From an uncultured virus (IMG/VR IMGVR_UViG_3300020414_001760) (lineage: Duplodnaviria > Heunggongvirae > Uroviricota > Caudoviricetes), in the IMG/VR virus record IMGVR_UViG_3300020414_001760: DNA of 20,000 nt. One strand, written 5' to 3'. Under the pieces are notes generated by a model that ran no database searches, had not been told where the DNA came from, and was given only the letters and a program-made list of their open reading frames with translations. Each line of letters starts with the position of its first letter. Within the stretch, counting starts at the first letter, position 1. This document shows positions 12,924 to 15,298 of this stretch, piece by piece. A program made the position numbers and the translations under genes.

Positions 12924-13370
12924 TTACGCATTCGCGAAATCGTCGTCGTCAGTACCTGATAATGTGTTATCATCACCTGCTTCTTCAATCTGCGCCGCAC
13001 CATCTGAACCAGATGCTGTAAATGTCCAAGACAATGATGTTCCTGATAGTGCATTTGAACCTGTACCATCTGGTGCAATCACTGTAGCTTTTCTACCTGC
13101 GATTTTAGAAATCTGATAAGTTTCGTTATCGTCACCTTTTACTGTAATGGCCATTTCACCTGCCGCTAAAGCACTTGCAAGTTTACCTGTTGTTAGTGTA
13201 CAAGTAAATTCACCTGCTGTTCCGATTTCTTCACAAACGAATTTTTTTGAACCCTTTTGCTTTACGATATAACCTTCTTTAACTGCTGTGCCGTTATGAA
13301 AGTCTACTTTGATTTCATTTCCACCTGCTGTAGGTGTACCGAAAAATCTCTTATTAATTGGTCTTCCCAT
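12924..13370 (-). CDS. Hypothetical late protein (148 aa), probably structural
   Basis: AAGGAGA SD, its own late promoter and leader, a downstream hairpin and an acidic C-terminus. Confidence 0.8.
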   Translation of the reverse strand: MGRPINKRFFGTPTAGGNEIKVDFHNGTAVKEGYIVKQKGSKKFVCEEIGTAGEFTCTLTTGKLASALAAGEMAITVKGDDNETYQISKIAGRKATVIAPDGTGSNALSGTSLSWTFTASGSDGAAQIEEAGDDNTLSGTDDDDFANA

Positions 13371-13394
13371 TTGTTTTCTCCTTTGACGTTCTAG

Positions 13395-13450
13395 GTCTAC
13401 GGGGTTGTTGTCCCCATAAGTCCGCCGTAAATGCGGCTCGCTTTATAGAC
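13395..13450 (-). ncRNA. Putative structured 5' leader of 12924..13370
   Basis: GTCTA.../...TAGAC closing stem, AAG-CGA-GCCG(CATTTA)CGGC-GGA-CTT arm and ATGGGG(ACAACAA)CCCCGT hairpin; begins at the predicted late +1. Confidence 0.55.
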
Positions 13451-13455
13451 ACAAG

Positions 13456-13461
13456 TATTTA
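13456..13461 (-). promoter_or_regulatory. T4-type late promoter core
   Basis: GATAAATACTTGT. Confidence 0.75.
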
Positions 13462-13490: not shown

Positions 13491-13708
13491 TATAAGCAAA
13501 ATAGGTAGGACTTGGTTACACCTACAAGCACGTACCGGAATACCATTCTAATACGTACAACCTAACCCCGCTAGTGACTGCGATGTGAACCTGCGGATTT
13601 CTCCTACAAGCCCTGGGTACCACCCCTGGTTAGTCAAGTTCGCCCCTTCTGGTAAAGAGCTCTTCCTTGCACTATAATAAGAAGTTAATTACTCTCCTTA
13701 TGCTTATA
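13491..13708 (-). ncRNA. Large structured ncRNA, manA-motif-like
   Basis: GC-richer non-coding stretch closed by TATAAGCA/TGCTTATA, with at least six hairpins including a GAAA tetraloop and complementary ACCA/TGGT loops. GGGGTGGTACCC and a 3' GTAGGT..ACCAA.TCCTACCT hairpin recall the manA motif (from memory). Confidence 0.65.
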
Positions 13709-13773: not shown

Positions 13774-13971
13774 TTAAATTTTACTATTTTGATGATTAAC
13801 CGATATATGTCCGGCAACAATGCCCGTATTTGGACCTTGTTTGAAACGATATCCAGAAGTCCCGCCACCATTAGTATCAATGGTATTTCTAGATGAAGCT
13901 AAAAGACGCTCTTTGCGTTCTTTCATTTTCTTCTCACGGTACTGTTTATGTAAATGATCGAATCTGTTCAT
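13774..13971 (-). CDS. Small basic protein (65 aa) under glutamine-riboswitch control
   Basis: ATG preceded by a GGGGAGG SD; lies 26 nt downstream of the aptamer. Confidence 0.75.
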   Translation of the reverse strand: MNRFDHLHKQYREKKMKERKERLLASSRNTIDTNGGGTSGYRFKQGPNTGIVAGHISVNHQNSKI

Positions 13972-13997
13972 AACACCCTCCCCTGTTAAAGTTTGAG

Positions 13998-14045
13998 TGC
14001 GTTCCTTCGCATTATGCTACTTCCGTCCTAGATAGGATGAACGAT
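13998..14045 (-). promoter_or_regulatory. Glutamine-I riboswitch (glnA RNA motif) aptamer
   Basis: ATCGTTCATCCTATCTAGGACGGAAGTAGCATAATGCGAAGGAACGCA: P1 CGTTC/GAACG, short P2 TCCT/AGGA, and a GGAAGTA...GAAG E-loop arm capped by GCA(TAA)TGC, matching the glnA three-way junction as I know it. Confidence 0.85.
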
Positions 14046-14055
14046 TGTGTAATAA

Positions 14056-14061
14056 TATTTA
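14056..14061 (-). promoter_or_regulatory. T4-type late promoter core upstream of the riboswitch
   Basis: CTAAATA immediately after the gp23 terminator, about 10 nt before the aptamer. Confidence 0.6.
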
Positions 14062-14064
14062 GTC

Positions 14065-14092
14065 AAAAAGAAAGGCCCCGAAGGGCCTTTCT
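14065..14092 (-). terminator. Rho-independent terminator after the major capsid gene
   Basis: AGAAAGGCCC-TTCG-GGGCCTTTCT followed by TTTT; the cUUCGg tetraloop is typical of T4-like terminators. Confidence 0.9.
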
Positions 14093-14131: not shown

Positions 14132-15298
14132 TTAGCTAAATGTTACGTTCGAGATAGTAACTGTACCTAAGTAGTCTGCCGCATTACCAAGAGATGATGC
14201 TGTGTTGTTTAACTCAACATAACCGTATCTTGTCATAAAGCTAACTACTGGCTCAAAGCTAGACGGATCTAGTACTACGCCACTTGACATTAAAGGAATG
14301 TAAGGGCAGTAGAACGCAGGTGCGTCTGATTCACTTGAACCTTTGTAACCTACTAATACTGCTGTTGCATCAGTGGCATATGAATCTACATATACTTTCA
14401 TAGCTGAATTCAATGTTCCAACCATTTTAGTATTTGTAGGAGCCTCAAATGCACCTTCAGTTGTTCTTGCGAACGCTGAAGTTGTTGCAGATTGTAGGAT
14501 AGTTAATGCGTGTGGTGATACCACAGCATAGTTACCAGCACCACGTCTAGTTCTCTGTGCGATGTTGTTAGCAACACGGTTGATCATCACAGCCAAAGCC
14601 GCGTGTTCATCACCTACGAATGTTGCAGTACCGCTTACAGCGTTCTGGTCGTATGCTTGTTGGTTTTGCGTTCCAGCTAAAGCTCTTAAAGAAGCTAATA
14701 CTTCTTGATCGATCTCAGCAGTAATTTCTTGGGCTAATGCCGCCATAATTTCTGCTTCAATATCGATGCCTTGCTGTGCTTGAGCATCTTGAGCCGCTTC
14801 AAAAGTCCATCTAGCTGATAGCTTTCTAGTTTTTGCTTCGACTGTTTGCTTTAAGATCTGGATAGATAATCTCTTACCTGCTTGACCTTCAAGTGCCGCT
14901 GTTGCTGAACCTTTCGGTGTAGCGTCAGTGGCGTTACCTGAATATGCCGCCGCGATCTTAAATGGTGATAATGCTTCTTCACCAACTTCGTTACCATCTG
15001 ACGAATCAGCGTAACGTACTCTTAATGTGTGGATTTGACCCACAGGACCTGTCATCGGCTGTACACCAACTAATTCGTTGGCTATTACAGTCGGCATAAC
15101 ACGTCTGATTACTGGTAGGATAACTCTGTTTAGAGTCGCAACATTACCGGCGCTTGTAGAACCAGCTGTAGCAGTCTCATTCAACCACTTGCGTGTGTTT
15201 TCTAGAGTACTTGCCATTACAGCCTTTTTGTTACCATTTAGGCCTTCTAAAAGTGCAGTTTTGGTATCCTGCCAGCGACTTTCTAGTAGTTCTGACAT
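14132..15298 (-). CDS. gp23: Major capsid protein (T4 gp23 family)
   Basis: PVIRRVMPTVIANELVGVQPMTGPVGQIHTLR, VEAKTRKLSARWTFEAAQD, LAQEITAEIDQE, AFYCPYIPL, SFEPVVSFMTRYG; follows gp21 and gp22. Confidence 0.97.
   Translation of the reverse strand: MSELLESRWQDTKTALLEGLNGNKKAVMASTLENTRKWLNETATAGSTSAGNVATLNRVILPVIRRVMPTVIANELVGVQPMTGPVGQIHTLRVRYADSSDGNEVGEEALSPFKIAAAYSGNATDATPKGSATAALEGQAGKRLSIQILKQTVEAKTRKLSARWTFEAAQDAQAQQGIDIEAEIMAALAQEITAEIDQEVLASLRALAGTQNQQAYDQNAVSGTATFVGDEHAALAVMINRVANNIAQRTRRGAGNYAVVSPHALTILQSATTSAFARTTEGAFEAPTNTKMVGTLNSAMKVYVDSYATDATAVLVGYKGSSESDAPAFYCPYIPLMSSGVVLDPSSFEPVVSFMTRYGYVELNNTASSLGNAADYLGTVTISNVTFS

Follow-up and report, generated by a model that had tools for sequence, protein, structure and literature searches.

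The window considered here is a 20,000-nucleotide stretch of an uncultured virus genome, and the features described from it lie on its minus strand. The gp23 major capsid gene (14132..15298, 388 aa; PF07068, E 1e-99) stands upstream of a riboswitch cassette and is 66–71% identical to its closest cultured relatives (tblastn, 50,697 phage records), which are jumbo phages of 285–469 kb. We take this group to be the RaK2/GAP32-like jumbo phages. A relative with 81% capsid identity measures 182 kb at 50% completeness. By its sequence, the source genome is that of an uncultured, marine, T4-like jumbo phage. The gp23 transcript is predicted to close with a terminator-like hairpin (14069..14092), which starts 40 nt past the gp23 stop and has 10 pairs, 6 of them G-C, and a T tail; the initial annotation had placed a terminator between gp23 and the aptamer, and this hairpin bears it out. 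Next comes a candidate promoter, the late-promoter core TAAATA (14056..14061), recognized by position and conservation. It was also part of the initial annotation and is kept in all 44 homologous phage loci (45 were found, and L045 was excluded as a chance match), where it lies 6–15 nt ahead of the first aptamer in several gene contexts. The cassette directly follows gp23 in 21 of these loci and has other locations in 23; since TAAATA is present at all 44 despite this varied placement, the promoter moves with the cassette. An earlier suggestion that the phage senses glutamine during virion assembly is therefore retained for late timing only, because the 23 cassettes just mentioned lie away from gp23. 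Six of the 11 minus-strand TAAATA occurrences in the window are intergenic, although just 933 nt of the 18.3 kb spanned by the genes are intergenic DNA. T4-type late promoters are recognized by a TATAAATA-like core near late units, of which the window shows the TAAATA core only, and a sigma-70 promoter scan of the locus gave no match above chance.

The aptamer is followed by a small open reading frame (13774..13971), referred to below as the gated gene, and then by two further structured RNAs; the initial annotation mentions none of the three. A manA-like RNA (13495..13700) scores 46.4 bits with RF01745, below the 55.2-bit cut-off (E 3e-9), and this model exceeds its cut-off in 3 of 20 homologous loci. 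A freshwater-2 RNA (13368..13437; RF02980, 51.9 bits, cut-off 49.9) forms the leader of the next gene and is preceded by its own TAAATA at 13461. Three structured RNAs thus occur inside 700 nt of the window, and their order is repeated in loci L022, L026 and L031. Elsewhere in the window (6993–1672), a 1773-aa protein with eight CBM_5_12-like repeats is probably a tail or fibre protein.

The glutamine-I aptamer and its expression platform

The element at 13996..14045 aligns with positions 1–53 of the glutamine-I (glnA motif) model RF01739 at 59.5 bits (E 4e-11), well clear of the 35-bit gathering cut-off. The Glutamine-II (Downstream-peptide) model RF01704 reaches 22.2 bits against a cut-off of 33 (E 0.11), and the proposed glutamine-I aptamer is upheld by this covariance check with both models. 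In the Rfam model alignment, P1 pairs 14043–14039 with 14004–14000, P2 pairs 14037–14034 with 14029–14026, the E-loop strand spans 14025–14018 and P3 pairs 14017–14015 with 14011–14009. The three stems meet in a three-way junction with the conserved junction and E-loop bases of the class; all model pairs are canonical, and deviations from the consensus are confined to the P2 and P3 arms. The first base past P1, at 13999, is the C60 equivalent. Position 14023 is presumably the G23 equivalent. A minimal aptamer of 48 nt with P1, P2 and an E-loop arm had been described; these elements are present, and the length is approximate because the core measures 45 nt (14043–13999) and the Rfam match 50 nt. 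All 20 homologous loci that were tested also score above the RF01739 cut-off. By every sequence test, the element is a member of the glutamine-I family. Tandem glnA aptamers occur ahead of the gated gene in some phages (L008, L009, L013, L018–L020), including 2 of the 20 tested loci.

The expression platform occupies the 27 nt between the end of P1 and the ATG and overlaps the ribosome site, as is characteristic of the class. Its OFF-state hairpin (13973..14000) pairs 13999–13995 with 13974–13978 and overlaps the Shine-Dalgarno sequence GGGGAGG (13983–13977). The initial annotation had preferred a different platform, in which CATCCT of the aptamer pairs with AGGGTG (13979–13974), and had named a GCACTC/GGGTGT (13978–13973) hairpin as the alternative. 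Comparative evidence reverses this ranking. A start was called in 83 unique phage leaders; the C60 hairpin is fully paired over 5 bases in 66 of them, with compensatory changes, and the CATCC helix pairs 5/5 in 28. Of 141 leaders, 128 could be anchored (70 from phages, 58 from cells), and mutual information was calculated for these, with shuffles that ignore relatedness: three hairpin columns covary at a level that none of 500 shuffles reached, and a fourth is equalled in 4 of 500, as against 500, 14, 175 and 50 of 500 for the CATCC columns. In predicted folds of 85 leaders, the C60 hairpin has a probability >0.5 in 72, compared with 2 for the CATCCT helix. The CATCCT complementarity exists, with one G-U pair, and does not hold as the platform; the hairpin first listed as the alternative turns out to be the covarying OFF helix.

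A relative of the CATCCT idea holds for the window sequence alone, where folding predicts that the start codon is paired with the aptamer 5′ strand, at a probability of 0.88. This pairing exceeds 0.5 in 8 of 18 leaders of the window ORF clade and in 13 of 85 overall, and in the window clade it can be modelled as a second OFF fold. That fold also bears on the very improbable reading that the RNA switches through the CATCCT/AGGGTG helix, is an OFF switch or responds to another ligand: in the window's minimum-energy fold, the start region is matched with the 5′ side of the aptamer, and P1 is predicted at >0.5 in only 3 of 85 leaders. Nearest-neighbour energies leave out the E-loop and ligand contacts, however, and neither the missing covariation of the CATCCT helix nor the agreement with the glutamine-I consensus over its full length, where the P2 and P3 arms alone differ, sits well with such a reading.

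The leader is best read as a translational ON switch of an already known design. In Synechocystis sp. PCC 6803, expression of gifB, which encodes IF17, is turned on by glutamine, and a helix from C60 to the ribosome-binding site that is melted by the G23-C60 pair has been postulated (PMC6212724). The ON-switch reading of the initial annotation is supported by the covarying hairpin over the Shine-Dalgarno sequence, and by analogy with gifB the phage leader is very likely switched on by glutamine. Conservation of TAAATA suggests that a short, separate mRNA would be made from this promoter late in infection. At low glutamine, the bases past P1 would fold onto the ribosome-binding site and silence the gene, and in the window clade the aptamer 5′ strand may also cover the start codon. 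With glutamine bound, C60 would be drawn into the G23-C60 pair, the hairpin would melt and the ribosome site would become free.

The gated protein family in SAR11 and its phages

The gated ORF, directly behind the glutamine aptamer, encodes 65 aa with a pI of 10.5 and belongs to a family common to SAR11 chromosomes and pelagiphages. AlphaFold predicts an N-terminal helix (residues 5–27) and a short strand pair (pLDDT 77.5), and a glycine-rich conserved motif follows the helix. Across 16 phage sequences, 22 residues are invariant, and 357 relatives occur in the protein collection. The ORF has no Pfam or NCBIfam family, nor is there one among those listed for 42 family members; it matches phrog_32989, a group of unknown function, at E 8e-4. 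A fold search with the AlphaFold model found no Z ≥5 among 48,161 chains and no Foldseek hit at E 0.001, and a search of solved structures returned designed repeat proteins and weak rows only. Serine palmitoyltransferase, matched partially by 3 of 4 distant members tested (best E 4e-5 over 33 residues, far below the cut-off), was set aside as a short glycine-rich motif. Comparison with 13 IF17/DUF4278-type sequences gave an hhalign probability of 0.05, which places the protein outside DUF4278, a domain with Tyr-Arg-Gly repeats, and comparison with a small set of 6 cyanobacterial proteins encoded behind glnA aptamers gave 0.1. We label this set IF7-like, presumably correctly, from its motif. 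Two of 4 metatranscriptome runs (X1, X3) contain contigs from close relatives that span the greater part of the ORF; no contig among those listed includes a start, and contigs give neither strand nor level. A literature search, with most subscription journals outside its coverage, found no description of the gated family or of a glutamine synthetase (GS) inhibitor in SAR11 or phages.

The family is frequent in SAR11 chromosomes. In one Pelagibacteraceae genome (L231), the same aptamer and hairpin precede a family homolog amid housekeeping genes, and the cluster of this homolog includes a protein of Pelagibacter IMCC9063. Of 301 Pelagibacteraceae genomes, many of them incomplete, 239 contain the family according to a profile built solely from phage proteins, with one match each and two in one genome; one unpublished genome (G228) enters this count only. 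Wider profiles match 2 of 401 Alphaproteobacteria, both SAR11, and none of the 201 genomes from the SAR86 order or the 401 sampled phylum-wide. By these profiles, the family occurs in no other Proteobacteria among those sampled, the sampling being of Proteobacteria. SAR11 are the most abundant ocean bacteria, and the small gene is present in about four-fifths of the sampled SAR11 genomes and in 22 cultured phages.

These phages emerged from the 50,697 phage records, in which 26 matches reach E ≤0.4; 25 of them are records of Pelagibacter phages, representing 22 phages, and the other is an uncultured marine phage. The remaining 10 phage rows have E ≥1. Carriers include HTVC011P, HTVC019P, HTVC027P, Kolga and HTVC008M, and all three pelagiphage proteins that were translated match the window-family profile. 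With the window protein as query no cultured phage was found; the host homolog as query found them. In HTVC008M (L376:901–978), the family match falls in an unannotated gap between two structural genes, where no clean ORF was recovered. The gene would be an overlooked auxiliary gene common to unrelated pelagiphages, as judged from these matches. Since the gated product appears to be a phage copy of a small SAR11 protein, the host of the window phage is probably a SAR11 bacterium, which hints at the host of an uncultured group of jumbo phages. An alpha-type tmRNA was not found in 5 partial relatives of the window phage. In a tree of 61 rows and 65 columns, whose bootstrap had not settled, 13 phage rows group with 5 unplaced rows at 83/93. 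The tree gives neither a donor nor a direction of transfer, and the cassette occupies many different positions in related phages, as might be expected of a mobile passenger from the host with no role in infection. That explanation is distinctly improbable given the phage late promoter at all 44 loci, the 22 residues held invariant in 16 phage sequences and the retention of the gene by unrelated phage types.

Many host copies of the gene have a different RNA before them. The glnA aptamer occurs in 1 of 151 genomes of the host order, and none of the 4 cultured pelagiphages examined has it at the gene. In a non-random set of 74 host loci, 2 have the glnA aptamer, 41 another leader and 31 neither pattern, and two of these 31 show the other leader by eye. 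It occurs in SAR11 host loci L290–L318, L326–L343 and L367–L369 (e.g., L300:1684–1762, minus strand) and, together with the late-promoter core, before the same gene in three viral contigs (L322–L324). It is built of a tandem pair of similar stem-loops, each with a loop that base-pairs further downstream, and resembles a tandem pseudoknot. Over 25 sequences, pairing holds in 94.5% of cells, and double changes affect 41 cells against 14.6 in shuffled alignments (0/500), with the structure derived from those same 25 sequences, which favours the fit; slid controls were all lower. No Rfam family matches it, and the available portions of PMC2704228 and PMC6429828 describe no motif that could be matched to it. 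RNAs that substitute for one another upstream of a given gene often respond to a shared signal. Because the glnA aptamer and the other leader interchange in this way, the latter is a candidate nitrogen riboswitch, and its sequence suggests an uncatalogued candidate riboswitch class. This provides a ligand hypothesis for an uncatalogued leader RNA. Upstream of the host gene, a GCA(N)9TGC-like palindrome is seen repeatedly (L333–L337 and L353–L365 upstream; also L322–L324). We presume that it is possibly a site for a nitrogen response regulator, a candidate being NtrX.

Nitrogen assimilation as a candidate target

An even sample of 61 genomes contained the gene in 45, and GS I could also be placed in 38 of them. 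Read from coordinates, the gene and glnA lie tail to tail in 19 of these 38, within 0.4–2.9 kb in 4 and elsewhere in 15; adjacency to glnA is one inherited synteny block, which is missing in the last 15. In that block the gene also trails the suf/hesB cluster on the same strand, sometimes 9–12 nt past its stop. With suf and glnA neighbours in one block, synteny alone cannot choose between GS and iron-sulphur assembly, and nitrogen is favoured because of the glutamine switch.

Control of nitrogen assimilation in SAR11 without the PII system has been considered an open question, and Candidatus Pelagibacter ubique lacks GlnB, GlnD, GlnK and NtrB/C according to the available part of the same source (PMC3870248). 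GlnE was not found in 5 of 5 SAR11 genomes and was detected in 3 control genomes. Cyanobacteria with small GS inhibitors are likewise described as having no GS adenylylation, and in the accessible portion of that study a GS inhibitor is the only characterized target class of this ON switch (PMC6212724). The lack of PII in P. ubique, together with the GlnE result, matches the setting in which cyanobacteria use small inhibitors. The product would be a small basic protein that is made at high glutamine, binds GS and turns it down. In late infection, its putative purpose would be to avoid spending ATP and glutamate on surplus glutamine. The best reading by analogy is that the protein is a small regulator, induced by glutamine, through which SAR11 would control nitrogen assimilation; it would parallel IF7 and IF17 without being homologous to them. 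IF7 (gifA) and IF17 (gifB) are likewise small and basic, and are made at high glutamine, as is predicted for the window protein, in organisms reported to be without GS adenylylation (PMC6212724), just as GlnE was not found in the five SAR11 genomes; in contrast, the window family has no detectable homology with them, and inhibition is proposed by analogy only. The whole chain, from a glutamine ON switch through a SAR11 host to a GS target with inhibition, is plausible, if somewhat less than probable.

Several observations weigh on the GS brake. There is no IF7/DUF4278 homology, the glnA aptamer is rare in hosts (2 of 74 host loci), adjacency to glnA fails in the 15 genomes noted above, and an inhibitor is not an obvious need of a nitrogen-hungry phage. 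On HTCC1062 arrays, probe set C134_0746, presumed to match the ORF from its position between hesB and glnA, reads low at 1.4–2.6 in all 12; its upstream neighbours read 6–7 and it has no nitrogen response. Complex prediction for two GS copies and the family protein of one SAR11 genome (G002) scored 0.25 relative to a mark of 0.32, with controls not folded, and speaks neither for nor against the brake. Rather unlikely is the same ON switch and SAR11 origin with another target: the ammonium transporter, which the protein would plug as a substitute for GlnK; the SUF iron-sulphur machinery or glutamate synthase; or RNA or the ribosome, bound by the protein as a basic translational regulator. The pI of 10.5, the absence of similarity to IF7 or IF17 types, the co-directionality with suf/hesB in the main Pelagibacter clades, and the lack of GlnK in SAR11, together with regulation of Amt proteins after transcription, would fit such targets. 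Against them, no amt neighbourhood appears in the loci read, the shared suf/glnA block does not separate the candidates, and a glutamine switch indicates nitrogen over iron-sulphur.

Host glnA, gltBD and amt transcripts rise during infection by HTVC027P (PMC12753301), which carries the gene. This rise, along with the carriage of the gene by 22 cultured pelagiphages, with no glnA aptamer in the 4 of 4 examined, could also be explained if the family binds GS and the phage copy, acting as a decoy or activator, ousts the host regulator so that glutamine synthesis continues. Such a role is improbable: a switch that is ON at high glutamine suits a brake more than an accelerator, and the conserved motif is retained in phage proteins.

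For the GS brake, the tie of the gene to a glutamine switch and to glnA synteny makes it a testable candidate for a SAR11 nitrogen regulator, and the question of SAR11 nitrogen control becomes testable by a single enzyme assay. A wider proposal is unlikely as a whole: that the family is the missing post-translational GS brake in SAR11, which is without PII and GlnE, that SAR11 phages of the podo-, sipho-, myo- and jumbo types all use it to direct nitrogen in the host, and that the tandem-pseudoknot leader represents a new class of riboswitch, responding to glutamine or to a nitrogen signal related to it. Viral NblA offers a parallel, as a small regulatory gene of host origin that several phage families infecting a single host group have taken up (PMC12695635); the window family differs in host and pathway, and its function is putative.

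Glutamine riboswitches in other phages and cells

A phage riboswitch is by itself ordinary, and phage glutamine riboswitches have already been published. They are reported in Methylophilales phage Melnitz, Pelagibacter phage Mosig and Prochlorococcus phage AG-345-P14 (PMC9004378), and glnA RNAs are reported in cyanophages such as S-CREM1 (PMC9964418); an earlier pelagimyophage survey found none, as far as its available text goes (PMC7029224). The novelty in phages implied by the initial annotation is therefore outdated, with the Melnitz, Mosig and cyanophage aptamers in print, as is its statement that these RNAs are known mainly from cyanobacteria: aptamers are common in SAR11-like and SAR86 genomes. 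What is new here is the gated gene, its distribution in cultured pelagiphages, the platform comparison, the alternative leader and the re-reading of Melnitz. The Melnitz, Mosig, AG-345-P14 and S-CREM1 elements share the RF01739 aptamer and marine T4-like phage setting of the window, but the available parts of those reports tie the aptamer to tmRNA, lysis or no gene (PMC9004378, PMC9964418), whereas in the window it precedes a conserved protein with chromosomal homologs, in a jumbo group. Synechocystis gifB has the same aptamer and C60 platform with a small basic gene directly behind (PMC6212724); the window copy differs in being phage-encoded, under a late promoter and probably from a phage of SAR11, and in its protein, which is neither DUF4278/IF17 nor IF7-like.

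The aptamer pattern gave at least 120 viral contig matches, of which 80 loci were read. Among the matches listed at these 80 loci, all 71 unique ORFs callable behind phage aptamers have ≤81 aa and a pI >9, as compared with 14 of 33 control small ORFs that are as small and basic; 13 of the 71 belong to the window family and 11 have Tyr-Arg-Gly motifs. At least six unrelated-looking families of basic proteins of 26–81 aa lie behind phage glnA aptamers (L046–L125), including DUF4278-like proteins and single-helix peptides of 28–35 aa. Cellular matches number at least 123, of which 80 were read. Among those listed, they come from cyanobacteria, SAR11-like Alphaproteobacteria and SAR86, with long leaders before amt, glnA and glt genes and the C60 hairpin before small genes. 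SAR86 and other marine Gammaproteobacteria (L172, L180, L186, L194, L213, L245) have ON-type hairpin aptamers before small basic proteins; two of these proteins are of the Tyr-Arg-Gly type and are possible IF17-like regulators outside cyanobacteria.

The Melnitz copy is 84% identical to the window leader over 72% of the latter. In the Melnitz record (MZ577097.1, L375:899–1068), the aptamer at 899–947 lies past the tmRNA model match at 474–891 and is followed by a C60 hairpin, a Shine-Dalgarno sequence and an unannotated basic ORF of 32 codons from 970. The published reading that the Melnitz riboswitch controls ssrA is doubtful, and we suggest that it gates this unannotated small gene and not the tmRNA. 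The ORF that the record annotates is on the opposite strand.
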